Source: an uncultured Nitrososphaerota archaeon | Lineage (GTDB): Archaea > Korarchaeota > Korarchaeia > Korarchaeales > Korarchaeaceae | DNA: 64,000 nt | Assembly (NCBI GenBank): GCA_964618805.1 | Contig: CAZUBM010000007.1 | Span: forward strand, 5,888 to 69,887 | Direction of reading: 5' to 3' | Shown here: one piece after another, positions 2,813-29,085 of the stretch | Layout: every line of letters starts with the position of its first letter | Position numbering within the stretch: the stretch's first letter is position 1 | The notes under the pieces: generated by a model | Databases searched by the model: none | Told to the model about the DNA's origin: nothing | The model's input: only the letters and a program-made list of their open reading frames with translations | Translations under genes and position numbers: made by a program

Positions 2813-3301
2813 ATGAAAGCCACTATGAAAAGCAAGCTACTTGCCATAGGAGGACCCGGAGCCAATCTACTAACATTCTACGTGAATGACTTCTTACCTG
2901 CTGTTTACAATGGAACTCATTTGACAGCTCTGAGCTACTGGAGCAAGATGCTCATCCAATGGTTTTACCTAGCACCATTAGCTACGCCTTGATAGGCACA
3001 TACAAGGACCTCAATGGAACGGTTATTCTCTCACTATGGGAATGACGGGAGAGGACACTTACTGGGCAGCTTCGTGGTTCCACGACTCTATACTTGGGAA
3101 ATTACATATGATATTCAGGAAATAAAGCCTAGTGCCGTAGCAATAATCTTAATGCTTGATTACAGCGCATATGACATTAAGCACTATCCAATTGTGAGCA
3201 TAATAGAGGTTCTAGGAACCAAGAGCGAGACAAGGTGGCCTTCTGACTCATCTTGGTTCTTCCTACCTGACAACCAAGAGCCACCGCATCCAGATCCATA
3301 A
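2813..3301 (+). pseudogene. Frameshifted C-terminal remnant of a paralogue of the S-layer-like gene 14857..17397
   Basis: Across frames it reads LAIGGPGANLLTFYVNDFLPAVYNG..LSYWSK / YALIGTYKDLNGTVILSLW / GMTGEDTYWAASWF / IQEIKPSAVAIIL...EVLGTKSETRWP...PPHPDP, collinear with the last ~155 aa of the intact gene. Confidence 0.92.
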
Positions 3302-3489: not shown

Positions 3490-6400
3490 TTGGGTAAGTT
3501 CTACTCGATCATTTTCCTCACGATTTTTTTGCTCCCCTTAACTTGTATGTTGGGTTTTCAGGATCAGACAGCCGTTTTAGTCTGTACTTTAAGCGTCTCT
3601 CCCGCGAATCCAAAGGTAGGGGATAACATAACAGTTGAGATGATCGTTACCCTTCTAGATCCAGAGATCTGGGCGATCAACGTAACTCCATCAACTATCT
3701 CAATGAATGGAACCGGAAAGGCAGTCCTCATATCAGGTCCTGTGCCAGAAGTTGCTAACTTCACGCTTGGAGAGGTCTATGCCCCAAACATATCCTTCAC
3801 CTGGACTTTCAGAACGATTGCCTCTGGATCAATCACCTTCAGCGGTTTTGCAGTGGGATACAGTCCTGTCCTTGAGGGAGAGGTTCAGTCTAAGGTCTGT
3901 AACATTTCAATAAATGTTGAAGAGGGTGAAGCTCCCCCCATAGAGGAGGTTGTTGACCTGAAGTGCGTTGAAATGTCCGCAAACATCACAGAAGCACAGG
4001 TCAACGAGACAATAAGGGTGGAAGCGGTAATAGTTGCTGAAGGGAACTTCACCCAGCTCACGTCTAAGGTGGGCTTCTACCTAGGTCATCCTGAAGAGGG
4101 CAAGCTGTTAGCCATGACCTTTGCGAATTTCACCCAAGAGGTCGCGTTAATGAAGGTCTGGTGCGAACTTAGAATAACTCAGGAGGGAGAATTTGAGATC
4201 TATGTGTACGCAGACTATTCCAATGAAATTGCAGAGAACAATGAGGAGAACAATATTTGTAGTGTAAAGGTAGTTGCCTCGCTTCCTGAGGCCTATCCAA
4301 CTAGTCCTACCCCTCCGCCAACTGAGACTCCTGCTCCGCCAACTGAAACAGGGGTCCCTTCAACCCCGACCAGCCCAACTGCTCCACCTGAAATAGAAAC
4401 ACCAACTGTGGAGGAAAGAGGCATTCCTACCTCGGTTTTAGTGGTTGGAGCCGTTGTCGCAGGTGCAGTAGCTTCCTACTTGGCGTGGAGGATCTTTTAC
4501 TCAGCAGGGGTCAAAGAAGTGCTGATGAGATGCTGCTGCCTTGATTGGAATGTGAGGTCAGAGGGAACAATCCTTAGGACTGTTAAGCCTGTGAGCAGGG
4601 ACATTAGGGTCAGAGACGGTGAGCACAAAGGGAAGATAGTGCACGTCATAGCATTATTCGCTCCGGTAGGTGGGTATCTACCGCTTGTGACCAAAGGCGT
4701 AAACGTAGATTGGATAAACGCTAGAGGAATCCTTAGGAGTTGCGATAGCGGATCCGGATCAAAAGAGGTTAGTGGTTACTCTCATTCGGGAAGGGTAGCT
4801 GGTTCAGTATCAATCCCAATCCCAGAAAACCTCTCATTCAAATGGGAGATCATCAGCGGCCCTGGTTACCTTTTATCTACCCCTCCCCTATCACATACTC
4901 ACTCCTCGGTGGCTGAGGGTCCAGCAGCTATTTACGTAGCCCCACCTTTCGTGGAAGAAGATCCCAACCAACATCCAGCAGATAGGGTTAAGGGCAGAGA
5001 AGTTCTGATCAAGCTGACGGTAGACGATCCAGAAGGGCAACTGGAGGGCCTTGACTCTCCTGTTGAGGAACGTTACTTCAGAATAATCTTGGTAGGTCAA
5101 GGACTTGAACTGCTGGATAAGGGGGTTCCTCTACGTGAGAATGACCTTGAGAAGTGGGTAGATTACTCTGAGGTCAAGGACGCCATCTCTTTAGAAGAGT
5201 TCGACTGGATTCGTCCATCTAGAACTCCAGAACCAAGTTCTGAAGAAATTAAGGATATCAAAGCCCAACTGGAGAAGGTTCAAAGGAGAAGAAAGGCTGA
5301 GGAAGAGACCTTAAGGTACAATTCGGAGATCCTAAGTGAGAAGAGGAGGAAGCTGGACAAAGCTTTAAGCGAACTCAACAAGATGAAATCAGAACTTGAG
5401 GATGTGGAGAGGCAAATAGAGAATCCAGCAGAGGCAGCTCGTAGGGCTAGAAAAGAGGCTAGGGAGAAGATAGAGGAGAAGTACATGTCGCAGATTGAGC
5501 AGCGTAGACAAAAGAAGAGAGATCTCTGGGAGTCTCACGTAGAGGAAGTTTCAAAGGCAAGAGAAAAAGGTAAGAGCGACGAGTACATATTAGATCTCAA
5601 TAAGAGGTATGCTGAAAGCGCAAGTAAGCTGGACAAGGAAATAGCCAAGCTGCTTCAGGAGATGTGGCGCGAAATCGAAAGGGCTAGAAAGGAAATTGGG
5701 TATCCAACAATCCATCCTCCTGGCCCTGGACCTGGTTTTGAGAGGTACCGAAGATCATTAGAACGGAGGAGGGAGGAGTTGAGGAAGAAAATTCCTGATA
5801 AGGAAAGGGAGGTTAAGGACCTGAGGGATGAAGTGGAAGAACTCGAAAGAGCCCTTAAAGGCCTTAGGAAGAAGATAGATGATCTGAAATCCGAGGAAAC
5901 GAGATTACGTGAGGGATTAAGGTCAGCTGAGGCCAGAGCAGAGGCTGAGAAGGAGTGCAGGCCCATGTACGAGTGGGAGGAGTTCAGGCCAATTGATGGA
6001 AAGATCTTGGCTCCTCTAAAGCTGTATGACTGGGAGCCTATCTTAGGTTCCGAATCTCCAGCTGTGGAACAGTCTTCAGTTGAGGTAAGACCAAGAGAAA
6101 TTCTAATCCTAAAGGCGAGGGCTGAGGATGTGGACAGGTTGAGGATCTGGATAAAGGATGGTCAGAAGATTGAGGTGGAGGTGAAGGATTGGCTCAGATA
6201 TGAGTGGTCTTCGAGGTGGACTGACGATAGGCGGCACAGCGCAGATCCAGGGATGTTCTTGGTAACTAGAGAGGGCGAGACTGTCATATTTCTAGCTCCA
6301 GAGGAGGAAGGAGAGATCGAGATAACTTGTAAAGTGAGGGACAGCGGGATTCAGGGCAGGGATCCCGAGCTGTCGATCAGAAGGGTTCTTAAGGTCGTAG

Positions 6401-7479
6401 GTAAGGATCCATTTGCCAAGGTTGAAGAGGGAATAGGGGTCATTGAGAAAGCCATAACTAGGCCTAAGGAAAGAGGGGAAGAGATAAAACTACCAGCTAA
6501 GAAACTTGGGGATCTAGAGGAGTGGGAAGAGATAAAAAAGAGGAGAGAGGAGGAACTAGAGGAGAAGGTAAAACTACCAGCTAAGAAACTTGGGGATCTA
6601 GAGGAGTGGATTCTTACATCCTATATTCAATTAAATCTTGCACAGATGACAGGAAGACTACTTAAGGAATGCATACACAACCTTAAGGTTCGCTGGTGGG
6701 CAGATCTGCTTTGGTACATGGGAAATGTCTTGCTAGCCGTAGCTGGAGCGCCAGTAGGAGGGGCAGCTGGCTTGATTGAATGGATTGGCTGGGCAATCGG
6801 ATATGGAATCACTGGAGGGCTAATAGGATACGAGGGCACCGCACAGTTGCTCTCAAGGCTTGATCTAGCCAAATCGTCCATGTACGAAGAGTGGGTGGAA
6901 GACTTAAAACCGACCATGCCTTCTTATGTGGCCAAAATTCGCGGAACTATGAGCGCTTCTGGCTTAGAATTCCTCCTATACAGGACAGGAGCTTCCATAG
7001 CATTACAGGAGGGATGTTCAAAACTCCTATTTGAGACTTTTGCCAATCAGGCATTAGCTTTCTGGAGGGCGTACTCAAAGAAATATGATTCCATTCCAGA
7101 TGAAGCTAAGGCCTGCTACTTGCTAAATTGCCTGAAATCTGAAATAATGCTTGCCCTAGGATTCGTTAGACCTTCCAAGGAGGATCTAGAAGATTTCAAA
7201 AAGAGACTCTCTTCCACCTTAGAAGGGGTAGAGGACGAAAGACAGTTCTTTGGCCTATTATCAGCACTCTTCACACCAATAAGGTATCTCACGGGTAGCG
7301 AAGAGGGATTCGAAAGAGTATCATTGACCTTAGAAAACATTGTGGATGCCCTCACGAGCAACAAGGAAGCAGCTGTCTCAGAGACCATACGGATGTTCAG
7401 AAACGTGATTTCTACGCTTAGAAAAGAGCTAGAGCTTCAGAAGATCATATTTGAAGGTCTAGAATCGCTCAGAGTGTAA
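3490..7479 (+). CDS. Large single-pass membrane protein: Ig-like + CARDB + Pro/Thr linker + TM + cytoplasmic Ig-like/coiled-coil/Ig-like/helical region
   Basis: Signal peptide; CARDB signature DYSNEIAENNEENN; PT-rich linker; TM GIPTSVLVVGAVVAGAVASYLAW; long E/K/R heptad region; Gly-rich hydrophobic segment near the C-terminus. Confidence 0.85.
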   Translation: MGKFYSIIFLTIFLLPLTCMLGFQDQTAVLVCTLSVSPANPKVGDNITVEMIVTLLDPEIWAINVTPSTISMNGTGKAVLISGPVPEVANFTLGEVYAPNISFTWTFRTIASGSITFSGFAVGYSPVLEGEVQSKVCNISINVEEGEAPPIEEVVDLKCVEMSANITEAQVNETIRVEAVIVAEGNFTQLTSKVGFYLGHPEEGKLLAMTFANFTQEVALMKVWCELRITQEGEFEIYVYADYSNEIAENNEENNICSVKVVASLPEAYPTSPTPPPTETPAPPTETGVPSTPTSPTAPPEIETPTVEERGIPTSVLVVGAVVAGAVASYLAWRIFYSAGVKEVLMRCCCLDWNVRSEGTILRTVKPVSRDIRVRDGEHKGKIVHVIALFAPVGGYLPLVTKGVNVDWINARGILRSCDSGSGSKEVSGYSHSGRVAGSVSIPIPENLSFKWEIISGPGYLLSTPPLSHTHSSVAEGPAAIYVAPPFVEEDPNQHPADRVKGREVLIKLTVDDPEGQLEGLDSPVEERYFRIILVGQGLELLDKGVPLRENDLEKWVDYSEVKDAISLEEFDWIRPSRTPEPSSEEIKDIKAQLEKVQRRRKAEEETLRYNSEILSEKRRKLDKALSELNKMKSELEDVERQIENPAEAARRARKEAREKIEEKYMSQIEQRRQKKRDLWESHVEEVSKAREKGKSDEYILDLNKRYAESASKLDKEIAKLLQEMWREIERARKEIGYPTIHPPGPGPGFERYRRSLERRREELRKKIPDKEREVKDLRDEVEELERALKGLRKKIDDLKSEETRLREGLRSAEARAEAEKECRPMYEWEEFRPIDGKILAPLKLYDWEPILGSESPAVEQSSVEVRPREILILKARAEDVDRLRIWIKDGQKIEVEVKDWLRYEWSSRWTDDRRHSADPGMFLVTREGETVIFLAPEEEGEIEITCKVRDSGIQGRDPELSIRRVLKVVGKDPFAKVEEGIGVIEKAITRPKERGEEIKLPAKKLGDLEEWEEIKKRREEELEEKVKLPAKKLGDLEEWILTSYIQLNLAQMTGRLLKECIHNLKVRWWADLLWYMGNVLLAVAGAPVGGAAGLIEWIGWAIGYGITGGLIGYEGTAQLLSRLDLAKSSMYEEWVEDLKPTMPSYVAKIRGTMSASGLEFLLYRTGASIALQEGCSKLLFETFANQALAFWRAYSKKYDSIPDEAKACYLLNCLKSEIMLALGFVRPSKEDLEDFKKRLSSTLEGVEDERQFFGLLSALFTPIRYLTGSEEGFERVSLTLENIVDALTSNKEAAVSETIRMFRNVISTLRKELELQKIIFEGLESLRV
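6485..6609 (+). repeat. Perfect 41-bp in-frame direct repeat (KLPAKKLGDLEEW x2)
   Basis: taaaactaccagctaagaaacttggggatctagaggagtgg at 6485-6525 and 6569-6609. Confidence 0.95.
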
Positions 7480-7719: not shown

Positions 7720-8394
7720 TTGATGAGCGGCTTATACTATCAATTGAGTTCCTTTCTGATCTCATCTAAGATCTTGTATGGAAAAGAGGTTGATATAGTA
7801 CACAGGATATTTCCAGCAATTTACGGACTGACCTTTGATCCAATTTCATTAGTTGCTAGAAGGGGGATTCCGTTTGTTATAGGCCAATATGCCGTCCAAT
7901 CATTAGTTCGCTTGCCTTGAAAGGAACATACATGCTCCATCTCTCAACAGTCAAGAGTGAAAACGCGGTTATAGTTCAGACACAGGTGTTAAAAGAGGAA
8001 TATTCCAGGATCCTGGATCCTGAGAGGATTTGAGTGATCCCTTTAGGGATTACACGGACTTCTTCTCTCCAGGACAGAAGAATTTAGATAAGGGATGGGT
8101 TGATGTGCTCACCGTAGCCAACTTGACCGAAAAGGAAGGGGATCGACTACCTGATAAGGGCAGTGCACTCCCTGAGAAAGCTCAGAAGGTTAAGTTAGGG
8201 ATAGTTGGAGATGGTTCTGAAAAGAGAAGGCTTCGTGAGATGACTTCAAGGCTTGGGCTCAACGAGGATGTGGTTTTTGAGGGACATGTCCCAAGGTCAA
8301 AGCTCAGGGATCTTTACAGAGGTGCGGACATCTTTTGCCTTCCTTCCCTAGTAGAACCATTTGGAAAAGCTGTCATTGAGGCCATGGCGCGCGC
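7720..8394 (+). pseudogene. Fragmented GT4 glycosyltransferase
   Basis: Pieces DIVHRIFP..IPFVIG, VLTVANL, IVGDG..., ADIFCLPSLVEPFGKAVIEAMA in several frames; similarity ends at 8387. Confidence 0.8.
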
Positions 8395-8423
8395 TAAAAT
8401 CTTCATCGGCTTGGTATTGAGGC

Positions 8424-8592
8424 GCGCTCTTCTTTTTTGAGAAGAGATCCGCTATTATAGGAATTTACAAGGTAAAGGAGCTTAATATGGCTAGAAACTA
8501 TGCAATGATCGAACTGAATGATGAATCGGTGATCACAAGTATGGTTGAAAAGCCTAGAGGCCGAGCTCCAAACTGGTTGCGACCTGCTATCC
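8424..8592 (+). pseudogene. Internal fragment of a second sugar-phosphate nucleotidyltransferase
   Basis: FEKRSAIIGIYKVKELNMARNYAMIELNDESVITSMVEKPR, then after a frameshift SKLVATCY; matches the EKP region of NTP_transferases. Confidence 0.65.
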
Positions 8593-12556: not shown

Positions 12557-14434
12557 ATGTTAAGATTAGAAGCATTTGATCTTAAAAAGAAGAGACTTGC
12601 TCTATTTACTTTGGCAATATTAACGCTCTCATTCTCTTCAGTAGAAGGTTTGAAAGCAGTATACAAGATCTCAATGCCACCTTCACTCAATAAGAGTTAT
12701 GTACCAGTTATTCTACATTATGATTCCTACTTCTACAGCAGCCCTGTGAAAATGCTCGAGAAGACACTTCAGTTCCTCATTTCGATGAACTTTCCAGTTG
12801 AAAAACTCTCAATAACGGTTTGGAGGGATGTCCTTGAGAAAGACAACTTGTTCTACGATTTGAAGAGCAGGCTTGAGAAGTATGGGTTTAGCTGGGACAG
12901 TTATCATGTAGGCCTTTTCCTGCCTCCTGAAGATGCAAACGATAGATACATCTTAGAGCTTGCGATGGAGGACTACAAAGGTAGATTCGGTAATTATCCT
13001 TTCTTTGTTGCTGGCTTCGCAGCCAGTAACGATACATACCTCTGGTTAGAGAAATATGGCGTTAGAATATCCTTTTTCAACCTATGGGAGGATGGACAGG
13101 ACTATAGCTTTAGGGGACATCCTTGTCCTGATAGGATTAAAGGAGCGAATTGGGAAGGAATTGGGAAGGTTCTCCCTTTCAACCATACAAACCGAGCCTA
13201 AGATCATCTAACATCCCTGGGCTACATTTAAGAGAAGAAGCGCGCGCATGTGGATATTCAGGAATCCTTCAAACGCCTACCTAAAGGCGAATTTCGCTGG
13301 ATGGGGGAGCATCCATCCCGGCGATCTTCTCATATCCCTTTCCCCTAATGGCTCCATTAAAACATCATCCGTGGAAGAGGCAATATCCAGACTTAATTCA
13401 ATCTTGGATCTTGTAGAACTAAACGCCTATTACAATAGGTTCCTTGTTTTGAGTTATGTAACGGAGCTTTACTCCTTGCAGAAATTTTCGGATAGGTTTG
13501 AGGTTTGGAAGAGAAGTGTGTTAGAGTTAAAAAAAGGCTACGTTTTCGTCAATCTCCGCAATCTCAGGACGATTTTGGACTCTCAAGCAGGTGTCCCTAG
13601 CACTCCAGCTTACTTTTGGGTTGATAACTCCACCAATTCCGACTTCATAAGGAGAGGAGAGGAACTTCCCTTTACAATGGTAGTTAGCCCTTACGGTAGG
13701 TTCATATTCTGTAGGAGGGATCCTGAAGCCGATCCTTATACTCCCCACCTGTCAGTTGTCAGCTAAAGCCTTTAACAGGACTTTTCAGAGCGTAAGAGAA
13801 GCTGTAGGAGGAGGACTAATGAAGTTAAATGTAATGGTTAATGGAACTCCCATATTCATGAGATGGAAGGGAGATATAAGCGAAGTTAGGGTAATTCCGA
13901 AGAAGGAGATAATCATTGAGTTCAACTACACAAAAGGAGAGGTTTCCTTTTTGAGGTTTATCAGAAGGATACACCTCACTCCTCTGGGAGTTTACGTGCA
14001 GGACTCGTCGAATTTACATCAAAGGTTTACGTAGATCTAAACTTTCTACAATACCTGACCCTAGGTTCCAACTTCCCTGGACCTCCTTCAGACGACGGGA
14101 TCCTAGTCCTTGACGACAAGGGTACCAAATATATTTTTCAGGCGAAAATGAGGGAGTTGTTCGAATCCCCTTGGATGGAGAGATCATTCTATTCAGAGCA
14201 TGTGATGGCTACTCCTTAGCATTGAGAACGTTGAGCAAACCTGAAAGAACCTTCGTTTATGATGAGAAAATGGAAAGTAAGTGGGAGACCATCTCCTTTT
14301 ACTTTGAACCTGGGACACTCCGATCTGGAGATAGGATTAACTTTTCTTACATGATAGTTCCAGCCAGCTCAATAGGGGAAGCTTTATTGATCTCTAAGCG
14401 AATTTTGAGCATTATTCCAACTTCAAACCCCTGA
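12557..14434 (+). pseudogene. Fragmented paralogue of gene 45711..47585
   Basis: Four track ORFs (12557, 13248, 13756, 14171) are collinear with the 624-aa protein (ILHYDSYF, WEDGQDYS, GWGSIHPGDLLI, MKLNVMVNGTPIFMRW, KWET); the first frameshift is an 11-bp tandem duplication aattgggaagg at 13148-13169. Confidence 0.93.
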
Positions 14435-14856: not shown

Positions 14857-17397
14857 ATGAATAAGAAAGTCGTTTTAACGGCTTTATTCCTGATAGCACT
14901 AGTAGGAATGCCTGCAATGGTACCAACATCCGCCCAACCATGGACCGATCCTGCCGAGTGGTACATGACCATCGAAGGGCTTCTTGACGCGGACTATTAT
15001 ACCCTTTATCCATTCGAAATTGATGAAAGTTTGACGATAGGCTTCTCCAAATTTGGTGAGATGATCAACTCTATAGACAACGTAGGCCTAGAGTACCGGT
15101 CTGTCGATCCATTTGCTCCTCCAGCAGGTTCACTCGTAAGAAGCGTTCCAAAGACGATATGGCTGCAAGGCTGGCTAATTAACGTAACCTATACTCACGT
15201 AACGAAAGGACAAAGGAATGTTTGGGCCTGTGCATTGCACGCTGACACCGTTGCTTACGGAGGTCCGTGGTTAAGAGTCGACTTTCCGGGCGACTGGAGC
15301 CCTATCTACGGTTACGAGACCCCAGACGACCCAGGATACATACAGGATGAAGTTCCATACAGGGCAACAGACCTACACAACGGAGGAAGGAAGACTAACG
15401 GAACTGCTTACACTTACCCAATAAAGATAATATATGAAGGGCCGAGGAAGATTGTAATAGAGCTCAGGACAGACATATACGACCACTTCGTGTATGAGAA
15501 CGGGGACACGAGCGGGGACATACCTCTCGTTGCGGTTGTCTTCACCATAATATTCAACAAGGTGAAGAAGCAGGTCAACATAATAAAGGACGTGAAGAGC
15601 CTGATGCCAGACAAGGTAATGGTAGGAAAGATGAACGTCCAGTTCAGCAACAGGGGAGAGATCGACTTAGGAAACGAGGGAGTAGGGTACAAGAGCTACG
15701 TGCACTTCTACACACAGGGTAACTCTTCTGAGACAGTGGAAGTGGGTGTGGCAGCTCCATTTGACACCAAGATAGAAGGGCTTCGTACCGTGTACGGTGA
15801 ATCATGGGCGCTAGTTCTCACTAATCCTGGACTTGAGTTCCCACCTCCGGAGGGACCTGGTCCAGAGAAGACAGGGGCTCCAACTTCTACAGATGAAAGC
15901 TCAACTGGTCACTTCCCGCAGCCAGACGGCGAGGCAACATTCGACCTGATCCAGGCAATAAACCCGGACGTGCCTCCGCGGGGAGTAGTATGGTTTGGCG
16001 CCTTCTGGCCCTCGCTGTCCGACTGGACAGTTGACGGGTGGCCGATGTGGTGGCGCTCAATGGACGCAAAGGACCCGCACAAGATAGACCTTGTTGACAC
16101 AGACACGGGAGAGAGCCTAGAACCTGAGATACCGTTCTACATTGCCGAGTGGGACTTCGAGCTTGATGACGTTACTGGCACTGACGTGCAGTTCAGGGGC
16201 GTTGCGATGTACGGCGTGATTGACCGGCACGACGCAGATGATTTGAACTTGGGCAGAGGTGACGTCATAGATTCGGAAGTCCTCTACTTCTGCAACGAGG
16301 AGTTCAACCCGTGGGACTTAGAAAAGGCTACGGATCCTCATGACAAAGATACAGCTAGGTATGTAGAATTCTTCGATATAACAGAGGTTGACGCAGATGG
16401 TAATGTGACGCTCTACTATACACCAGTGCATGACCCAGTTGACTGGGATGCTTACAGCGTTTTCGCGGAGAGGCTTCTGCTGCTATGCCCATATGGATAC
16501 TATCTTCTCAAACCAGTTATAGACTACAACATCACATATGCTACAGGAGAGATTCACCTAGCAGACTGGGTCACTTATGAAATGTTATATTACGACTGCG
16601 TACTCAAGGTCCTGTATTCTGTTGATTACAAGTCAAGATACGAATGGATAGTGGTAGGAAGGGACGCAAAGACCACCGACGTGCTTGGAGCTGCTTATGT
16701 TGCTGCTGCCCTCAAGAACAAGGGATTCGAGACATGGATGATGGGCCTAGACATGATGGACGACCCGCGCTACTGGCGCGACAAGGTGCCTTGGGTGATG
16801 GCCCCGTTATCAGGAGTTCCAGTAGGCTACGACGACAGGGATGTGTACTACGACTGGGAGGGAGAGCAGGGACCGAGGCCTGCCCTCAAGGACCACTGGT
16901 GCAACCCAGAATTTACCATACTTCCGATTGCCAGCTCAAACCTCATAGCAGTTGGAGGACCAAGGGCCAACCTGCTCACTGAGTACGTGAACGAGTTCTT
17001 GCCAGTAGTGTATGATGGAGAGAAGCTAATATCCTTGAGCTGCTGGAGCAAGAACGCCTATGCTCATCCAGCATATGGCGGAGATCACTACGCAGTGATA
17101 GGAGTGTACAAGGACTTGAACGGAAGCGTAATACTTACGATCTGGGGAATGACAGGAGAGGACACCTACTGGGCAGCTGCATGGTTTGATCTGGATCGGA
17201 TCATCCACGCCTTACAGGACATCAAACCAGGAGTTGTAGCCATAGTCCTTTACATAGATTACACCCACTACGACATACTCCACGAGCCGGACATCTGCGT
17301 GCTCGAGTTCCTCGGAACCAAGAGTGAGACCTGGTATCCAGAGCTGGGCTGCCCGGACGGCCCGGACAAGCAGGTCCCGCCTCACCCTGACCCGTGA
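14857..17397 (+). CDS. Probable major S-layer / cell-surface glycoprotein
   Basis: Signal peptide; acidic and aromatic-rich; N-x-S/T sequons; C-terminal WIVVGR...DVLGAA...NLIAVGGPRAN S-layer-type module; own promoter, SD and terminator candidates; C/G-ending codon bias. Confidence 0.75.
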   Translation: MNKKVVLTALFLIALVGMPAMVPTSAQPWTDPAEWYMTIEGLLDADYYTLYPFEIDESLTIGFSKFGEMINSIDNVGLEYRSVDPFAPPAGSLVRSVPKTIWLQGWLINVTYTHVTKGQRNVWACALHADTVAYGGPWLRVDFPGDWSPIYGYETPDDPGYIQDEVPYRATDLHNGGRKTNGTAYTYPIKIIYEGPRKIVIELRTDIYDHFVYENGDTSGDIPLVAVVFTIIFNKVKKQVNIIKDVKSLMPDKVMVGKMNVQFSNRGEIDLGNEGVGYKSYVHFYTQGNSSETVEVGVAAPFDTKIEGLRTVYGESWALVLTNPGLEFPPPEGPGPEKTGAPTSTDESSTGHFPQPDGEATFDLIQAINPDVPPRGVVWFGAFWPSLSDWTVDGWPMWWRSMDAKDPHKIDLVDTDTGESLEPEIPFYIAEWDFELDDVTGTDVQFRGVAMYGVIDRHDADDLNLGRGDVIDSEVLYFCNEEFNPWDLEKATDPHDKDTARYVEFFDITEVDADGNVTLYYTPVHDPVDWDAYSVFAERLLLLCPYGYYLLKPVIDYNITYATGEIHLADWVTYEMLYYDCVLKVLYSVDYKSRYEWIVVGRDAKTTDVLGAAYVAAALKNKGFETWMMGLDMMDDPRYWRDKVPWVMAPLSGVPVGYDDRDVYYDWEGEQGPRPALKDHWCNPEFTILPIASSNLIAVGGPRANLLTEYVNEFLPVVYDGEKLISLSCWSKNAYAHPAYGGDHYAVIGVYKDLNGSVILTIWGMTGEDTYWAAAWFDLDRIIHALQDIKPGVVAIVLYIDYTHYDILHEPDICVLEFLGTKSETWYPELGCPDGPDKQVPPHPDP

Positions 17398-17476: not shown

Positions 17477-20400
17477 CTAAGTTATTCTTTCCCTTCTCCT
17501 CGCTCTCACTAGAAGGAGGGTCGCTGCACCTAATTCTGCGACGAGAGCTTCCAGTAGAAGAACGGGCTTCCACTTCAGGACCGGTGGTTCCCTCCTGAAT
17601 CTCCCTTCAAACTCGAGGCACTCGGAGATGCTGTAAACATCGGAAATCAATATCTTCACGTTAACCTTTCCTTCAAGCTCTAAGTTCTGCCCCTGGGCCC
17701 TAAACTTGGGGTACAGGGGATAATAAGTCCAACAGCCCTCGATGAAGGCCCTTCCTGCAACCTCGAGCCTTGGTCGAAAGGATAGGAATTGCACCTTGCC
17801 GAAGATCCTCGCTTCCACATGATCTCCGCTCAATTTCAGCTCATCTTCTCTCCCATCAACTCTCGAGGAAATCTTGACAGAAGCTGACCTCGCCTCTATC
17901 ATCGGGTTCTCAACCTCGACAAGAGCGTAAAAGCCAGCTCCTCCAAGAACCCTTACCCTCTTCCCCCGAACTATGACCGCGCTTCCCCTCACGACCATGG
18001 ATTCTAGCCCCTTAACCCGAACCTCCCTACCATCCACCAAGACCTCCAAGCCAGCGCTCTGGTTGAGCAGGGATATGAAGCGCGAGTAGAGGCTTGCATT
18101 GCCCTCGGCCGACAGGCTCTTGAACAGCAGGAGATCTCCATCGAGGCTCCGCACATCTCGAGCTTTTCGAAGGGGAACAGCTCCCTTGAGGCTTTCGATC
18201 GCCGCCAAGGAAAGGTTGAGGGCCTTTTTCATGGGGAGCTGAGAGAAAAGCGGAACTAGGTTCAGGTAGATGATGGTTCCTTCACCCACCCTGGCCTTGG
18301 AGATGAGGGGAGCAGAACCCTCCCCAACGTAGCTCGCCAAAACCTCAACTCCCTTCTTGGCAACTATGCATTGAGGCTCGATTGTCCCGTCCAGTCCAAG
18401 CTCCTGGCTCATTATCATGAGCTTCGACGCCCTGATGGGCAGGTTTGCCCTTAGCAGGAGCCTGCATTGAGACAGCCCGAAGTCCTCCGAATCCAAGCCA
18501 TCTTCTGGGGGCACCTTAACCATGACCTCGATCAAAAGCCCCTCCCCTTCCACCCAAGTTGCAATGCTCCCCGCTCCTTCGGGAAAGAAGAGGTCGGAGG
18601 AAGATCCGTCCATGAGGGGGATTCGTTCAATGATCTGATGGGTAGGCGCGGCTTTCAGAACCTTTCCTAAGTCCAAGGACAGGATGCTTTGAAAGGATGA
18701 CCTCGTGCTGTTGAAGGCCAGCATCTCGATGGCGCCCTTGGAGAGGTTAAGTAGCTTCACAGGCAACCTTACCCTCAACTTCAAGTAAGATCCTCTCTCC
18801 AATGAGATCCTGTCGAGGAACCAAGTTCCGGATACGTTCACGTTTTGGGGGGACAGTTTGAGCAGCATCTTCCTCACCTCCTTGAGGGAAGGCTCTCCGA
18901 CGGATCCCTTCCATATCCTGACTCCAGAGACCTCGTAAAGTCCCTCTGGCAGGTTGAGGGGCAATAAAACCTTCCTCCATCCGTTCCAGCTGTCCTCAAA
19001 CTGGTAATATATGAAGTTCTTCCTCCCTGGGGAGAGTAGGATGAACAAGTACCTCTTTCCGTCCCCCTTGCCGTACCAGTAAAACGTCAGGAACTCGTAA
19101 CCTGACCAGTCCTGTGGGGCGTCAAACACGTGGCTTATCTGCCACTGGGCGAAGTCCCCCTCCCTTCCTTTAACCTCTATCCTAAGGGAATTGGCGCCTG
19201 AGACCCTTCTCGGATCATCTGAGAGCACCGGAATGCTCAAATTGCCAGTTCCGATCCCAGAGGCAACCCAAAACCTCGTTTGGTTATCATCAACCAAAAT
19301 CAACCCTTCGCTCTCGTCGTTATCCAATATCAGCTCTATCGAGTTCCCCCTAAATTGAGGCGTTAGCTCACGGGCTTCCTTAGGGTAGTTTTCAGCTAGG
19401 TGAATGAAACCCCCTTCGCTCTTGAGGGAGATGTTTGCCCACTCAAAAAATAAATCTGAGAGGTTGCTGTAACCCTGAACTCCAAAGACCAGTGCAAACT
19501 TGCCCTTTCTAACCAAATCCAGGGTTTTCTCGACTAACTCTGGGTCTCTCTCGTCTCCAAGCAGTATAACATCAATCTCGTTGACATCTAGGTCCGAAGG
19601 CACTCTCGTCGTGTAGTTACACGAGAGCATGGACAAGATTGTGCAGATGGTACTCACGTACATGTCGCCAGATCCGGAGCTCTTTAACAGGACAGCCGCC
19701 CTGCTGTGGGCCGAGGGAGGGGTTCCATCGAAGAGGGGAAGGACCGCCAAGCTCTCGGTCCTAATGATGGTTGGCAGCGACTCCAGCAGGTAGGAAGACA
19801 TGTAGCCCCCGCTGTAATTCCTTTCCAGCAAGAAGAAGTCTGCTTGCCCCAGGTAAATGTGAGGATCGTCCGCCATCAGCAGGAGGCGTAGAGGTAAGTG
19901 AGGCAACTTTGCCTCCCAGAGATAAGGCCAAGGAACGGGTCCCTCGTGCCTGGTGATGTAGGCAAAAGGTTTGGCCTCGGATCGAGGTTCAAATGGGAAG
20001 CTGAGATCTCCGAGAGGCCTCTGAGCGTGGTCAAGCGAGTACAAGCTTTTGTAGGTTACGGGGTAGAGGGTGAGGTTCGGGTTCTCCTCGTACATAGACC
20101 TGATTTTGGCGAGCGCATGAATTTCCTCGGGGCCTAGCTTGTCCGATGCCTCGTTGTAATATCTTACCATGCAGATGTTGGATCCTATTCCGAAGGAGAA
20201 AAGCAGGAATAGGAACAGGAGCAAAAACCCTCTACCAGCGCTAGACCTCAGCCTTTCATGGAGCCTTACCAAGGGTTCCGAGGCCAGAATGCACGCGAAA
20301 GCAAAGGCCAGAGGGATCACCCTCCTCTCAGCGTATCCGACCCAAGCGTACTCGGCTCTCAGAATCGAAAGAGCCTTGCCGAAAAGCAGAGCAAGGGCTA

Positions 20401-22075
20401 AGGTGACATAGGGCAAAGATTTGCAGGTGAAGCCACCCTTAACCAGAAGAAAGCCTGGAATCCCGAAAAATATGGGATAGTAGAAAAGGGGGACATATTG
20501 GGATTCGAGCAGTCCCTCCCCCCAATGCTCGTTGGCCAGCAGGATCCAAGTCATGAAACCCCACAGATACGCGAATAAGGCCCATCTACTCAGGCTTCTG
20601 ATCCTTCCCGAGCTTATCTCCTTTTTCCTGTTTCTACGGAGGAAGTTGGCTGTCAGCATGACGAGAACCATTAGAAGAGTTGCCAGCAATGTGTCCCTCC
20701 TTGTTTCGAGCTTAAACTGGAGATTAAGCGCTGCATACAGCAGGAAACCCGCCGTAACTCCCGTCACGGTGCCCTTCAAAGCCATCCTCCTGGAGATGCC
20801 TTGCTCTTCCCCAGCGTCCATCAGCTGAGATAGGGCCAAAGAGAGAGCGAAGATCATGAGCTCTGGCAGGTGAATGAAGTAAAGGGATCCTGCCATCAAG
20901 GGCAGGACGTACTTAGCTTCAAATTCGTTGCTGCCCTGCGCCATGTGAACCAAGAGGAAGAAGAAGGTGTAGGCCACCGTTATCGGCCTGAACCACAGGA
21001 AGATCCAGGAGGAGTTGCCGAAGGACGTATCGTAGTAGGTAGCAAGGTTACACTCCCTCATGACCTCCGGAGTTACTCTCACGATCGCCCTCTTAACCAG
21101 GTATGCCCATCCGAGGCCGGAGAAGGTGGACCACATCAGGGTTGAAACGTTGGCGAGCTCGGCTTTCTTGGTCAGGGTTCTTGCCATTAGAAAGAAGGAG
21201 AGGACTACCATCAGCAGCCCTGAAGCCGTCAAAGCGGTTTGGATCGCTGCATACGAGGCCTTGGACAACCGCATAGTAGCCATCTCATAGAGGTGGAAGA
21301 ACAGCTGATCCAGCTGTGGATAAAGGTTCTTTGCCCTTTCAAGGGTTATGCTGAGCATATAGTGCCTTGAGATGTCCACGTTTCGCAGGTAGACGATGCC
21401 CGGGTAAGTTAGCGAGATTATCGAGAGGGGGAAGGATATCGAAAACAGGAGCGATAGCAAATCAGAAGCCCTCACCCTGATCCGCCCGATCGTTTTGAGA
21501 CGTCTTAGCTTGAAACCCAAAAAGAAAAGGGATATTAGGAGGTATAACGAGGCCAGAACCTTGAAACGAGGGGGTTCTTTGAATGGGAGGAGGGAGAAGG
21601 AAAGCAGGGCAGTCAGGACGAAGCTCAGGGCGTAGGAGAGAACTATCCTCTCCATCGTTCCCGTTCGAACCATTAATGAGTCCAGCAAGAAATGACCGGG
21701 CAGGAAGGAAGCACAGATGATAGCTGGAACTACGAGCAGATCAGAACGGAGCGCATCGAAGCTTGCCAGAAGGATCAATGAGGAGCTGAGCAGGTAGATT
21801 AAGCCAGGAGTTAACGACAGTTCAGCTGAGATCTCAAACTTCGCCTCAAACCCTCTCCTCTCGAGCAAAAAGTGGAGAACTAGCGCCCCAAAAGCCCCGA
21901 ATCCGATCAACAGGGCCCCGTAACTTCCACAAACCAATATCTCCAGCAGCAATAAGGAGAGCCCTGCCGTGAGGAAAATCAGCTTTGGGATTTTCGCGGA
22001 GGTTGCAACGTTCTTTGTCACCATGCCTGATCTCAGACGTTTGCCTCCTAAAAAGTTTGAGGAATTAGCCATCAA
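17477..22075 (-). CDS. 1532-aa GT-C-like membrane protein with large extracellular region containing a CBM11-like domain and C-terminal TM anchor
   Basis: Multi-TM N-half with NVDISRHY, WSTFSGLGW, WFRP, IHLPE, ERR motifs shared with 25585..29085; NSLRI...DWSGYEFLTFYWYG...WNGWRKVLLPL...WFLDRI insert. Confidence 0.75.
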   Translation of the reverse strand: MMANSSNFLGGKRLRSGMVTKNVATSAKIPKLIFLTAGLSLLLLEILVCGSYGALLIGFGAFGALVLHFLLERRGFEAKFEISAELSLTPGLIYLLSSSLILLASFDALRSDLLVVPAIICASFLPGHFLLDSLMVRTGTMERIVLSYALSFVLTALLSFSLLPFKEPPRFKVLASLYLLISLFFLGFKLRRLKTIGRIRVRASDLLSLLFSISFPLSIISLTYPGIVYLRNVDISRHYMLSITLERAKNLYPQLDQLFFHLYEMATMRLSKASYAAIQTALTASGLLMVVLSFFLMARTLTKKAELANVSTLMWSTFSGLGWAYLVKRAIVRVTPEVMRECNLATYYDTSFGNSSWIFLWFRPITVAYTFFFLLVHMAQGSNEFEAKYVLPLMAGSLYFIHLPELMIFALSLALSQLMDAGEEQGISRRMALKGTVTGVTAGFLLYAALNLQFKLETRRDTLLATLLMVLVMLTANFLRRNRKKEISSGRIRSLSRWALFAYLWGFMTWILLANEHWGEGLLESQYVPLFYYPIFFGIPGFLLVKGGFTCKSLPYVTLALALLFGKALSILRAEYAWVGYAERRVIPLAFAFACILASEPLVRLHERLRSSAGRGFLLLFLFLLFSFGIGSNICMVRYYNEASDKLGPEEIHALAKIRSMYEENPNLTLYPVTYKSLYSLDHAQRPLGDLSFPFEPRSEAKPFAYITRHEGPVPWPYLWEAKLPHLPLRLLLMADDPHIYLGQADFFLLERNYSGGYMSSYLLESLPTIIRTESLAVLPLFDGTPPSAHSRAAVLLKSSGSGDMYVSTICTILSMLSCNYTTRVPSDLDVNEIDVILLGDERDPELVEKTLDLVRKGKFALVFGVQGYSNLSDLFFEWANISLKSEGGFIHLAENYPKEARELTPQFRGNSIELILDNDESEGLILVDDNQTRFWVASGIGTGNLSIPVLSDDPRRVSGANSLRIEVKGREGDFAQWQISHVFDAPQDWSGYEFLTFYWYGKGDGKRYLFILLSPGRKNFIYYQFEDSWNGWRKVLLPLNLPEGLYEVSGVRIWKGSVGEPSLKEVRKMLLKLSPQNVNVSGTWFLDRISLERGSYLKLRVRLPVKLLNLSKGAIEMLAFNSTRSSFQSILSLDLGKVLKAAPTHQIIERIPLMDGSSSDLFFPEGAGSIATWVEGEGLLIEVMVKVPPEDGLDSEDFGLSQCRLLLRANLPIRASKLMIMSQELGLDGTIEPQCIVAKKGVEVLASYVGEGSAPLISKARVGEGTIIYLNLVPLFSQLPMKKALNLSLAAIESLKGAVPLRKARDVRSLDGDLLLFKSLSAEGNASLYSRFISLLNQSAGLEVLVDGREVRVKGLESMVVRGSAVIVRGKRVRVLGGAGFYALVEVENPMIEARSASVKISSRVDGREDELKLSGDHVEARIFGKVQFLSFRPRLEVAGRAFIEGCWTYYPLYPKFRAQGQNLELEGKVNVKILISDVYSISECLEFEGRFRREPPVLKWKPVLLLEALVAELGAATLLLVRARRRERIT

Positions 22076-25584: not shown

Positions 25585-28500
25585 TTGTTAGAAATAGAAG
25601 GGCGGAGTGTTGGATTGCGAACAGTTATTAAGTACGTGATTGCTGGAATAGTGAGTCGGAAAGTGCTCCAAATGAAAGCGCGTAACCTCTTGACCCACCT
25701 AGCTCCCATAGTAGTCTCGATACCAATTTTAATTGCACTAAACTATCAGCTATTCGAATCCCCTTTTCTATACGCGGTTATACTATTTGAAGCAGGTTTA
25801 ACATACTCTTTTTACCTGTTGTTCTATCACAAATATCTGGTGTCGTTAAGGCTCCAGATAGGGCTAGTGAACGTCTTCAAGCTTAGGACTTTGGACATTG
25901 CTGTCATCTTGTTGTGTGCCTTCCTTTTTTTCGTAAACTTGTTTGGCCTTCACTTCCTCAACAACGTGATAATCTCCACTTTTATCGTCTGTTTTGCCCT
26001 TGGGTATGCAGTACTGCGTTATCTTAACTTTCGACCCCTCGTTAGCAATGTTGAATGGATCTTACTTTCCTTTTTCGTTAGCATACCAGTGAATTGTCTC
26101 CTCTTCACTATTTCCCTTTTCTTCCCTGCAGAAAGAAGGACTAGCATCCTCTCTTTTATCTACCTTATTTACGTCCTAGCAGTCATCACTTACGCCAAGA
26201 AGGATCTCTCTGGGGAAAAAGCTGGCAACATCGTCCTTAGATTTGATTTAGGGGAGGCAACATGTCTCATCTTGGGAGCAGGGTTCGTTCTCCTGTCTCT
26301 TGCTTATACCTACCCAGAGATGGCTCTCTTGCCTGGGTTAGACATTGTAAGACACTATTCTTCAGCCCTCCTCATCAACACAAACCCTGAGGAGTACTCT
26401 TCCCCTTATCCCTGGTTTCACTTTCAATTGGCAACAGTACAGCTCCTTTCGAGCCAAGATATAGCGGTATTCCAAACAGTAATGGCTCTTTTTGGGATGC
26501 TATTAGTTCTTGCCATATATCTATTAGCTAAAACTTACCTTTACGGGTTGGATAGGAGGATACCTGCTCTCTCAACGGTTCTTTGGACAACTTTCTCCGG
26601 ATTCGGCTGGCTATCGATGTTCTTACTGAAAGATGACATGTGGTCACATGATCGGCTCATCTACTTGAGCAGAGTCTTTCGAGAGTCGTTCTGGGATGTG
26701 GGATATGGGCAAGGACCTTGGTTGTGGTTGTGGTTTAGACCGTTTGCTGTTGGTATGATAGGGGTAACACTTCTTCTTTATCTCCTGAAGCGGAAAGACC
26801 TTAGTTCGAATGTCTTTCTGACTGTTGCCTTCTTAGTATCGCTCGGAAGTTGTTTAGTCCATTTTCCTGAGTTTGCCTTCTTTGTCGTACTATTTTCGGT
26901 AATCAGCTTATTTCGCATCGAGGAATTGCGTCTTAAAGACATGAACATCTCCTTGATTGGTTCTATTGCTGCTGCCCTCGGTTTATTGGGTATTTATGAC
27001 TTGCTGGGCATTAAAATTGGTATTCCGCTAACTTTCTTACTCTTGCTCTTTGCATTTCCTGCAATTGCTTTGATAGGCAGGTCTAAACTGCTTCAGATAA
27101 AAAGAAGGGTTGGACTAAACTTAAAATGGATCTCTCCAGTTATAGCATGTGTTTTGATAGCTTGGACAGCTTTCATTGCTTATTGGGCGTTGAATGTTGA
27201 AAAGTTCTCTGCAGTTGCATCTAACTATGCTCTGCAAGTCCCCTGGATGTTCTATCCCGTCTTACTGGGAATTAATGGGTTTCTAGCCCTTATTCAGGTG
27301 CTCATCTCGTTTAGGGATCGCCATTACATGAGTTTTGTTGCTTTGTTCGTCATTATGTTTGTTGTTAGCGTGTTTTTTGGAAAAGCGATATCTCTTTTTC
27401 ATATTTACCAAATATCCCTAGAATATTGGGAAAGGCGTGTGATAGGGCTTGTCTTCCTAGCTTCTTCTATAATATCGGCACCAGCCCTTATCCACATATT
27501 TAACTCTTGTCCTAAGGCGTTATCGTCCTTATTCTTATCATTAATGGTTTTTAGCGGCGTAACCTCAACTGTCCTAAGCGTAGAGCTTCAACACCTTTCT
27601 ACGTCTAGAAGCGCTCTCACACAAAGCGAATTGCTTGATCTAAGTTTCCTAGAAAAGGCGGGCTACGGTCATTATCTGCTCCCGACCTCTCTAAGATCCT
27701 TTTACGTATCTGAATACGTTCCCTTTAAATGGAGGATTAAGTGGTTTAGATACCAAATCTTAGAGGCTCAGTCAGGGGAATTTGTGTTAAATGCACTGTT
27801 TTCAACGGGATATCCAGCTATTGTTTACACCGGGGAGAGGGGAGAATCTGTGCTAAGAGAGAATTATTCTAAGAGCTACATCTTACTTCACTTTCTCAAC
27901 TCAGTTCCCGCCTTAGACAGGAATGGATCTCACCTGTTCAGGTTGCCTCCTCAAGCACCTCCAGCTGAAAGAAGCGGGGTGGTTCTTGTCCTCCCAGATG
28001 ACATCTCGGTTGATTCGGTCCTTTGGTATGGCCTCGACTTTCTATCGACTGCTGGCTACAATTATACTACTGCTCTTCTTTCTGACCTCAAGATGCTTGG
28101 AAATGCGGAGGTCTTGATCGTCCCAAGCTTTAGCATTTACTCTAGACTTTTGGAGTTTGGAAGGACGATTCAGCTTCCTAAGAGAGTTATCCTCTTAAAC
28201 CTAGTTAATGCGTCATGCTCACAGGCTGCGAATTCTGAGGAAAATATAAGCGCCAAATTAACAGTTTTGGACCTATATCCACACATCAGAGATTTGAAAA
28301 GGGGACAAAAGGAGTTGTACTATAGATTTGGGGAGATAATCAGGGAAAAACTAGATCTTTCAGGCAATTACATGTTTGAAGAGAAACCCATTAATTCTGG
28401 AGAAACTGCGGCTTTTAAACGGGCTAAAGTCAGAGGAAAAGTGATCATGACTTTTGAAACTATCCTGATAAAGCCCCTTGTAAATGAGCTGTTGGCCAAT

Positions 28501-29085
28501 GAAGAGAAGCTAATCCTTCCCAAAAATACTTCGCTCATCACGGCCTTAGATTATGATAAAGCACTCTTGAGGGCTGATTACGCAGAGATTATTCCAGGGA
28601 AGGGATTCTACCTCAAAATATTGCTTAAGAATGCCACTATTTCGTTCAGCGGAGGTTCTGCTGATCTCTTAACCTTCTCAAACTGCACCCCTATGCTTCT
28701 TCTAGAAAACGTCGAGACGGTAAATATGGAGAAAATGGAAGCTCTAGTGAGAGGATTAGTAGTTGAGGGGAACGGAGAAATAGAATTTGAGGATTTCTAC
28801 GCATATGGTTCGCTGTATAGAGAGATTAGGGTCTTAGGTGAAGAATGGGGATTAAGAGGAAATTTTACGTTTGTTGGCTTTTTGGGAGATCAATACAGCA
28901 TTATAAGGGATTTCAGGTACAATGGCGTTGAACTGCTCTCTAGCCCTCAAGAGCAAGCGGAACTCGTAGACAGGCGTGCACTGCGCATTTTATTGATTGT
29001 GATCATTGTCATGTTTTTGATCCTAATATTTGTTAGAGCAAAGGAAGGGACCTCCGATGAGGAAAACAGTATTAATAGGGCTTGA
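25585..29085 (+). CDS. 1166-aa GT-C-like membrane protein, paralogue of 17477..22075
   Basis: GLDIVRHY, WTTFSGFGW, WFRP, VHFPE, WERR, YNYTT motifs; C-terminal TM. Confidence 0.75.
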   Translation: MLEIEGRSVGLRTVIKYVIAGIVSRKVLQMKARNLLTHLAPIVVSIPILIALNYQLFESPFLYAVILFEAGLTYSFYLLFYHKYLVSLRLQIGLVNVFKLRTLDIAVILLCAFLFFVNLFGLHFLNNVIISTFIVCFALGYAVLRYLNFRPLVSNVEWILLSFFVSIPVNCLLFTISLFFPAERRTSILSFIYLIYVLAVITYAKKDLSGEKAGNIVLRFDLGEATCLILGAGFVLLSLAYTYPEMALLPGLDIVRHYSSALLINTNPEEYSSPYPWFHFQLATVQLLSSQDIAVFQTVMALFGMLLVLAIYLLAKTYLYGLDRRIPALSTVLWTTFSGFGWLSMFLLKDDMWSHDRLIYLSRVFRESFWDVGYGQGPWLWLWFRPFAVGMIGVTLLLYLLKRKDLSSNVFLTVAFLVSLGSCLVHFPEFAFFVVLFSVISLFRIEELRLKDMNISLIGSIAAALGLLGIYDLLGIKIGIPLTFLLLLFAFPAIALIGRSKLLQIKRRVGLNLKWISPVIACVLIAWTAFIAYWALNVEKFSAVASNYALQVPWMFYPVLLGINGFLALIQVLISFRDRHYMSFVALFVIMFVVSVFFGKAISLFHIYQISLEYWERRVIGLVFLASSIISAPALIHIFNSCPKALSSLFLSLMVFSGVTSTVLSVELQHLSTSRSALTQSELLDLSFLEKAGYGHYLLPTSLRSFYVSEYVPFKWRIKWFRYQILEAQSGEFVLNALFSTGYPAIVYTGERGESVLRENYSKSYILLHFLNSVPALDRNGSHLFRLPPQAPPAERSGVVLVLPDDISVDSVLWYGLDFLSTAGYNYTTALLSDLKMLGNAEVLIVPSFSIYSRLLEFGRTIQLPKRVILLNLVNASCSQAANSEENISAKLTVLDLYPHIRDLKRGQKELYYRFGEIIREKLDLSGNYMFEEKPINSGETAAFKRAKVRGKVIMTFETILIKPLVNELLANEEKLILPKNTSLITALDYDKALLRADYAEIIPGKGFYLKILLKNATISFSGGSADLLTFSNCTPMLLLENVETVNMEKMEALVRGLVVEGNGEIEFEDFYAYGSLYREIRVLGEEWGLRGNFTFVGFLGDQYSIIRDFRYNGVELLSSPQEQAELVDRRALRILLIVIIVMFLILIFVRAKEGTSDEENSINRA

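Follow-up and report, generated by a model that had tools for sequence, protein, structure and literature searches.

A rare archaeal gene for a putative membrane-crossing surface glycoprotein with a large conserved inner part

Archaeal surface glycoproteins of the S-layer type are rich in N-x-S/T sequons and carry Ser/Thr-rich clusters which are thought to be O-glycosylated, as described in PMC6098224. Here we describe a gene which lies in a 64,000-nucleotide stretch of DNA from an uncultured Nitrososphaerota archaeon (assembly GCA_964618805.1, contig CAZUBM010000007.1, positions 5,888 to 69,887; hereafter the window), where it occupies the open reading frame (ORF) at 3490..7479 on the + strand and encodes a protein of 1329 aa, P0001. 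Like the S-layer-type glycoproteins, P0001 has a signal-like N-terminus, a CARDB domain, dense sequons and a Pro/Thr stalk followed by a transmembrane segment (TM; for the stalk and sequons, PMC6098224), and its gene sits within an island of glycosyltransferase and S_layer_C genes. Unlike them, it continues for about 1000 residues past the TM, and this part is more conserved than the ectodomain.

The gene is intact, rare and archaeal, and the best reading is that it encodes a sugar-decorated, membrane-crossing surface protein with a large conserved inner part. It is built from familiar elements (a CARDB domain, a coiled coil, a membrane hairpin and Ig-like sandwiches); the libraries searched have no annotation for the way in which these are combined, nor for the beta module itself. 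The main new result is this module, a duplicated beta unit with Cys/His motifs, absent from annotation in every library used. An earlier note, made from the sequence alone, had listed the signal-like N-terminus, CARDB, sequons, TM, beta domains, coiled coil and hairpin of this ORF, and all of these features were found. Tentatively, and at somewhat short of an even chance, we favour a lineage-specific archaeal membrane glycoprotein which is anchored in the membrane twice and serves as a static tether or receptor scaffold. On the exterior, its fast-evolving, N-glycosylated ectodomain (an unassigned beta domain plus CARDB) would stand atop the Pro/Thr stalk; inside, the single TM would lead to a strongly conserved duplicated beta module with Cys-run, HxHS and DSGxQ signatures, into which a heptad-patterned coiled-coil spike is inserted, and a helical region would then bring the chain back to the membrane via a Gly-rich helical hairpin. 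The protein would couple the cell surface to a cytoplasmic platform which lies against the membrane and docks partners, or would act as a scaffold between the two, as suggested by the architecture, the conservation gradient and the absence of an enzymatic, signalling or defence domain.

Repeat 1 of the beta module (residues 347-545; 4528..5124, +) begins with a juxtamembrane Cys run, followed by HxHS, AEGPAAxYxAP and LTVDD, and repeat 2 (residues 823-975; 5956..6414, +) starts with C.P...W and carries the DVD, FLAP and DSGIQ signature. The two domains had been proposed to be homologous and the proposal stands, through a relationship visible by profiles alone: BLASTP detected no similarity between the two repeats, whereas their profile-profile comparison in the P0001 family gave 87% probability (E 4.5e-6). 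In the compact relatives introduced below, repeat 1 aligned with repeat 2 at 98.4% probability in hhalign (E 4e-15, 128 columns, 5 proteins; four proteins with long inserts were excluded from the compact repeat-1 profile), and repeat 2 of the archaeal family aligned with the compact repeat 2 at 97.9% probability (E 4e-13). The two beta domains are thus halves of one duplicated, unannotated module. An AlphaFold2 (AF2) model of residues 341-1329, built from a 15-row alignment, had a mean predicted local distance difference test (pLDDT) of 61.1 and a predicted template modelling score of 0.30, and placed strands in two regions, 347-543 (mostly at pLDDT 70-91) and 864-969 (at pLDDT 50-70). Prediction of a complex between repeat 1 (341-545) and repeat 2 (818-980), run without controls, scored 0.29 and 0.05, both short of the mark of 0.32.

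Fourteen compact proteins (P0016-18, P0020, P0022-26 and P0028-32) also carry this duplicated module, its signatures following one another as in P0001; nine of them came from the exhaustive search described below and five more from using two of those nine as queries; their sole source name is 'hypothetical protein'. In these proteins the first half runs through CxC(C/K/Q)C, LPL..A.D.D.L, W-E...G.G...H.HS....G(P).A.Y.AP and LTVDD, and the second through C.C.P...W, a second A.D.D.L stretch and DSG(V/L/I)(H/Q). The repeat 1 signature HxHS / AEGPAAxYxAP / LTVDD is common to P0001 and the compact relatives. A further likeness is that the module is preceded by a Pro-rich linker and by domains which are DUF11-like or otherwise Ig-like. 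Unlike P0001, the compact proteins lack a TM ahead of the module, a coiled-coil insert, the hairpin and the helical C-terminus. They also have many more module Cys, at 7-14 and 4-5 compared with 3-7 and 2-7 in the TM-bearing family (for the close clade, 4 and 2-3). In a tree built from the HxHS repeat (19 rows, 137 columns), one branch with 98/96 support separated 10 TM-bearing rows from 9 compact rows. We considered the juxtamembrane Cys run as an acylation site and rejected it, as the motif predates the TM and is present as CxCCC in the TM-less compact relatives.

Fold comparison and language-model scores hint weakly that the beta module may be an Ig-like or PKD-like E-set sandwich. It matched Rib, FN3 and the GH158 C-terminal domain in Foldseek at E about 1e-2 (probability 0.97-1.0), and the ESM Atlas leads were PKD, K319L-like PKD, REJ and Sde0182_C at 0.80-0.85, below the level taken as more than a lead. 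It differs from them in that no Pfam PKD or Ig model matched at E <= 10, and in its extra Cys-run and HxHS motifs. No Pfam model covers the module in either the P0001 family or the compact relatives.

The architecture had not been recognised in the earlier note, and the libraries agreed. CARDB alone reached the Pfam cut-off on the whole protein, and Pfam searches with five separate domains at E <= 10 returned nothing usable. NCBIfam gave no match at its curated cut-off, PADLOC and PHROGs gave sub-significant matches alone, and the sub-threshold matches of all three were confined to the coiled-coil stretch; so were the 18 marginal matches from a whole-protein PDB sequence search at E <= 1 (best 2.4e-4). 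The best PADLOC match was LmuB (E 3e-4, 17.6 bits) at residues 755-821, i.e., in the coiled coil, and no defence family was significant. No enzymatic or signalling domain was detected in P0001 with Pfam and NCBIfam, and no description of the architecture was found in literature listings and the starts of abstracts. AlphaFold and Foldseek analysis, the check proposed alongside the feature list, yielded models of the beta, coiled-coil and helical segments, with C-terminal models of low confidence and without a fold match. Foldseek of the 989-aa cytoplasmic model against the PDB and viral models gave generic coiled-coil and Ig-like matches with TM-scores <= 0.14.

The gene runs from a TTG start to a TAA stop. 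A TGA lies directly 5' of the TTG, which is the sole start that retains the hydrophobic N-terminus, and the database copies of the protein begin at M20. Residues 1-19 align with the relative P0007, which shares 76% identity across residues 1-265, and the signal-like N-terminus of P0001 is therefore most likely translated. The orthologue P0003 is 88% identical to P0001, and further relatives share 47-52% identity. Within the gene, a tandem repeat of 42 nt x 3.2 (6472..6606, +) duplicates a motif of about 13 aa in a helical linker; P0003 has a single copy of the motif, and the duplication is absent there.

A word-indexed search found seven relatives of P0001. Exhaustive phmmer of residues 341-1329 against 1.84 billion representatives returned 21 proteins at E <= 1e-3, comprising two close full-length, six distant full-length, four fragmentary and nine compact sequences. 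Counting P0004 and P0005 from the word-indexed search, the full-length archaeal family has 11 members. Their shared outer plan is a signal-like N-terminus, an ectodomain, a Pro/Thr-rich stalk and the TM, after which come the Cys run, repeat 1, coiled coil, repeat 2, helices, hydrophobic hairpin and further helices. All elements of this plan, including the CC(L/S)x(W/Y) motif and DSGxQ, are in P0001 and, with variations, in P0003-6, P0008, P0010-12, P0014 and P0015, P0004 having missed the C.P...W pattern. In tblastn, P0001 had no match among plasmids and phages, nor P0032 among plasmids, and the 64-kb window holds no paralogue of the gene.

Three further genomic loci (L001-L003) were found with a 5-sequence alignment, two of them from Thermoproteota archaeon metagenome-assembled genomes. 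The gene has glycosyltransferase, S_layer_C-like and DUF2079 genes as neighbours in the window, an ABC permease in L001, PIN/MazE and HpaB in L002, and DUF72, a HEPN/nucleotidyltransferase pair (13261-13978) and a beta-helix/LTD protein in L003. Since the neighbourhoods differ in all four loci, the gene stands alone.

Conservation, measured as the fraction of invariant positions among five close members, rises from the outside to the inside. The ecto domains are invariant at 4% and 9% of positions, compared with 43% in the juxtamembrane part plus repeat 1a, 60% in the HxHS repeat and 58% in repeat 2b (866-975); the coiled-coil arms stand at 28-30%, the hairpin at 34% and the C-terminal helices at 11%. 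As such, the beta module is the conserved core of the protein, and the ectodomain evolves fast. The type of ectodomain also varies across members by Pfam, from BatD-like with one or two CARDB domains, through CARDB alone, to none recognised, and P0007 has a P0001-type ectodomain joined to a different coiled-coil tail without the hairpin. The exterior is thus a fast-evolving cassette which can be swapped, with the conserved function probably residing in the beta module.

The putative signal peptide of P0001 coincides with a hydrophobic, signal-like segment at residues 1-25 with a Kyte-Doolittle (KD) value of 2.09 (feature at residues 1-26; 3490..3567, +; conserved in P0007), and comparable N-termini are found in P0008, P0010, P0011, P0012 and P0015. 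Of the proposed Ig-like plus CARDB exterior, the CARDB domain is secure (PF07705; residues 156-258; 3955..4263, +; 29.4 bits against a cut-off of 22.7, E 9.3e-7, profile positions 3-100 of 101), whereas an Ig-like first domain is plausible. This first domain (residues 27-150; 3568..3939, +) contains 6/11 of the sequons and is probably beta-rich; it had no Pfam match in P0001 at E <= 10, and it aligns with regions of P0010 and P0012 that have weak BatD/DUF11-like matches. Of the 11 sequons in P0001, ten fall within residues 46-213 and the other is at 447, and the count of about ten which the earlier note gave for the outside was thus found before the one strong TM. The Pro/Thr-rich stalk, also as described beforehand, was read from the translation at residues 263-310 (4276..4419, +) and leads to TM1, a strongly hydrophobic segment at residues 311-333 (4420..4488, +; KD 1.97), which lies where the single TM had been placed. 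Insertion scores of TM1 across members range from -2.0 to +2.6, these and all insertion energies below coming from an approximate per-residue scale.

With the N-terminus outside and the C-terminus inside, the charges that flank TM1 would follow the positive-inside rule, and subtracting the net charge of the N-flank from that of the C-flank gives a positive value in all 11 full-length members. Furthermore, sequons on the N-side of TM1 are enriched across these members (71 observed against 26.7 expected from shuffles; 10/11 members above expectation), while those on the C-side are at expectation (16 against 20.2). These two lines of evidence, together with a signal-like N-terminus that precedes one strong TM, support the N-out/C-in layout proposed at the outset. 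The argument then offered, that sequons are nearly absent after the TM, holds in its conclusion and not in its reasoning: P0001 has one sequon after the TM against 1.8 expected from composition, so there is no depletion, and the signal is the enrichment outside (10 observed against 2.6 expected). If the layout is true, P0001 is an archaeal surface glycoprotein with a conserved business end inside the cell, and would thus be a rare case of a protein that joins the surface of an archaeal cell directly to its cytoplasm. The wider importance is uncertain, the family being very rare and uncultured.

The inner part had been called a coiled-coil machine of about 1000 aa. This description fails, as the coiled coil accounts for about 240 aa and the remainder is the duplicated beta module and a helical region of about 350 aa. 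The coiled coil itself, with its Pro/Gly break, was found as described at residues 584-823 (5239..5958, +), where AF2 placed helices at 584-736 and 748-823 (pLDDT about 80-92) split by a Pro/Gly stretch at 737-747 (5698..5730, +), a break or tip. The heptad contrast of residues 584-823 was 0.477 against 0.229 +/- 0.026 in shuffled sequences, and 0/200 shuffles reached 0.477. Motif spacing also bears on its origin. From HxHS to C.P...W there are 84-101 aa in 9 compact proteins compared with 206-365 aa in 10 TM-bearing members (354 aa in P0001), and from C.P...W to DSG 100-103 aa in 8 compact proteins compared with 127-272 aa in the 10 TM-bearing members; P0004 fell outside these 10 as the C.P...W pattern failed to match. 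Because the spacings are longer in the TM-bearing members, the coiled coils are lineage-specific inserts, at more than one site, into an otherwise compact module. The unannotated duplicated module would then face different sides of the membrane in the two lineages, one of which has taken long coiled coils into it at several positions, and would be a clear example of a domain being relocated and decorated.

When a compact domain takes up an insert, the two ends of the insert must come close to each other, and this fits a spike which folds back on itself in antiparallel. Such arms are known from SMC and chemoreceptor-type proteins, and P0001 resembles them in its long heptad-patterned helices, which turn back where the Pro/Gly stretch interrupts them, its best Foldseek matches being the SMC antiparallel coiled coils 5xei (E 5.4e-5) and 5xg2. 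It differs from them in that it lacks an ATPase head, a hinge, a HAMP domain and any signalling domain, and the fold-match TM-scores are <= 0.1. By profile, SMC_prok_B reached 8.4 bits compared with a cut-off of 567 and ASRP 16.4 compared with 300, with matches within residues 584-821 alone. One alternative to the tether is that P0001 is a chemoreceptor-type signalling receptor, in which the ectodomain senses and a conserved Pro/Gly tip of the spike docks a cytoplasmic partner. The closeness of the two ends of the insert, the SMC-type fold matches and the invariance of 4/11 tip positions (737-747) in the close family are in its favour; however, Pfam and NCBIfam detected neither HAMP nor a kinase, methyl-accepting or further signalling domain, the loci have no che-like or regulator genes as neighbours, and the inserts vary in site and length across members, so that the tip is not conserved family-wide. 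We consider this receptor unlikely.

The second membrane contact of the tether or scaffold which we favour would be the hairpin. The proposed Gly-rich hydrophobic hairpin was located at residues 1069-1115 (6694..6834, +), in all-helical surroundings in the models, and comprises a Trp-rich start, a Gly/Ala/Pro turn and a second arm resembling a glycine zipper. A hydrophobic, mostly uncharged stretch with a Pro/Gly turn is kept at the equivalent position in 12/12 sequences, with longest uncharged runs of 15-50 aa, and the clade of P0005, P0006 and P0009 has a charged insert of about 20 aa in the turn. Insertion scores of the two arms were -2.4/+1.7 in P0012, +2.2/+2.2 in P0015, +3.2/+1.8 in P0014, +1.8/+3.7 in P0008 and +1.4/+3.9 in P0006. 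In P0001 they were +5.3/+4.9, equal to the most hydrophobic other inner stretch, a predicted beta strand at residue 383. By these scores the segment of distant members resembles an ordinary membrane hairpin, while that of the P0001 clade is only marginally hydrophobic.

Beyond the hairpin the protein is helical to its C-terminus (residues 1116-1329; 6835..7476, +) in both AF2 models, at low confidence. In the long model (341-1329) everything past the strands of repeat 2 is all-helical with pLDDT 26-65, and residues 976-1329 modelled alone are all-helical with a mean pLDDT of 52.9, falling below 50 around the turn; neither model gave a reliable tertiary packing of the hairpin against amphipathic helices. 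Foldseek of the C-terminal model gave 0 matches at E <= 1e-3, a weak test at that confidence. Separate PDB profile searches for the C-terminus (3 sequences) and for repeat 1 (4 sequences) returned none below E 0.77, and ESM Atlas scores for the C-terminus were <= 0.81, at noise level.

The earlier note had linked the hairpin to alpha-pore-forming toxins and membrane remodellers. The hairpin does resemble those of colicin-type toxins and membrane-shaping proteins, with about 45 mostly uncharged residues and a Gly/Ala/Pro turn within a helical domain. It is unlike them in that P0001 gave no sequence or fold match, its C-terminal model being of low confidence. The link found no support in any search by sequence or fold: for the hairpin-bearing domain, known pore-forming domains gave no Pfam match (E <= 10), no PDB profile match and no Foldseek match, the fold test being weak.

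A second alternative builds on this comparison and takes P0001 as an outside-in sensor with a built-in membrane effector, whose ectodomain is engaged by a virus or neighbouring cell and relays this to the cytoplasmic module, upon which the hairpin is freed, oligomerises and permeabilises the membrane. A fast-evolving ectodomain over a conserved interior would suit such a device, as would the marginally hydrophobic, Gly/Ala-rich arms of the P0001 clade, the rare and patchy distribution (21 matches in 1.84 billion representatives) and the location of the loci in variable regions near pairs of the toxin-antitoxin type (HEPN/nucleotidyltransferase in L003 and at window 49708-50474; PIN/MazE in L002). 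Yet the PADLOC matches are sub-significant and fall within the coiled-coil stretch, no similarity to a pore-forming domain was seen by sequence or by fold (from a poor model), there are no conserved partner genes, and the hairpin segment of distant members is hydrophobic enough for constitutive insertion. We therefore regard this sensor as quite improbable, and very doubtful in the form of a single polypeptide acting as contact or virus sensor, with the glycosylated ectodomain as bait, the module and spike as switch and a released hairpin which permeabilises the membrane. If it were true, it would be an archaeal abortive-infection or contact-response device without a described counterpart. In the tether or scaffold, the hairpin would instead anchor the protein in the membrane constitutively, and would not be inducible in the manner of a toxin.

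Similarly improbable is a membrane-shaping or bridging protein, in which the hairpin acts as a wedge while the coiled coils and an adhesive ectodomain drive the formation of vesicles, nanotubes or cell-cell bridges. The wedges of reticulon, atlastin and mitofusin would be comparable. The two membrane anchors flanking a coiled coil, the short hairpin turn and the adhesin-like ectodomain speak for such a protein; against it, Pfam and NCBIfam found no GTPase or other energy-supplying domain, and the charged turn insert of the P0005/P0006/P0009 clade is a poor fit for a shallow wedge. The profile of PspA/IM30/ESCRT-III (PF04012) reached 15.9 bits compared with a cut-off of 33.9, at residues 759-821 alone, i.e., within the coiled coil.

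Several points weigh against the tether or scaffold which we favour. It is an argument from architecture. The hairpin arms of the P0001 clade, at about +5 each, score the same as the beta-strand stretch at residue 383, so in this clade the hairpin may be soluble and buried, and the C-terminal models are of low confidence throughout, the long one having pLDDT 26-65 and the short one averaging 52.9. The copy of the gene in L001 (915-3725) stops right after repeat 2, lacking hairpin and C-terminus; it matches P0005 at 97% identity as far as residue 925, an ABC-permease fragment comes next, and it is either a misassembly (a contig chimera) or a tolerated natural truncation. The compact relatives raise a further difficulty: 0/14 have a hydrophobic 19-mer (KD >= 1.5) in the 60 residues before the module, and 7/14 have an N-terminal signal-like segment at KD >= 1.5, one with a lipobox-like LIAGC. 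With no TM before it and signal-like N-termini, the module is probably extracytoplasmic there, which is awkward for its cytoplasmic place in the P0001 family. The lower number of module Cys in the TM-bearing family is what relocation to the cytoplasm would predict, although this is only suggestive. The compact relatives, together with the cell-envelope and glycosylation island in the window, would also accommodate a reversed topology or wholly external protein, with module and coiled coil outside as an S-layer-type stalk presumably akin to tetrabrachion, but this we consider the least probable of all, given that a strong TM1 after a signal-like N-terminus puts the C-terminal part inside, that the flank charges are C-in in 11/11 members, that sequons are enriched on the N-side alone, and that the TM-bearing family has fewer module Cys than the compact relatives.

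The surroundings of the gene in the window contain several ORFs of separate interest. Just 5' of it, a 95-aa ORF (3014-3301, +) matches the last ~66 residues of an S_layer_C-like ORF of 846 aa at 14857-17397 with 51% identity, and is probably a gene remnant. Directly downstream, a 136-aa ORF (8030-8440, +) covers the glycosyltransferase group 1 profile in part (positions 10-120 of 172), and is probably a truncated gene. Further along, four consecutive ORFs of 214, 172, 92 and 87 aa (12557-14434, +) match successive parts of a 624-aa ORF (45711-47585, +) at 51-66% identity and look like a broken paralogue of it; neither the four ORFs nor the 624-aa ORF had a Pfam or NCBIfam match.

No tRNA and no Rfam family was found within the window. 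Adjoining HEPN and nucleotidyltransferase ORFs (49708-50474, +) form a pair of the toxin-antitoxin type, and a similar pair stands beside the homologue in L003. Two tandem paralogues of the DUF2079 membrane protein with 42% identity (31567-35677, +) lie within a long run of glycosyltransferase genes. ORFs of 1532 aa (17477-22075, -) and 1166 aa (25585-29085, +) are paralogues of each other, sharing 24% identity over 755 aa, and have no family match. Lastly, the stretch at 16-24 kb has a GC content of 0.50-0.53, compared with about 0.42 elsewhere in the window.

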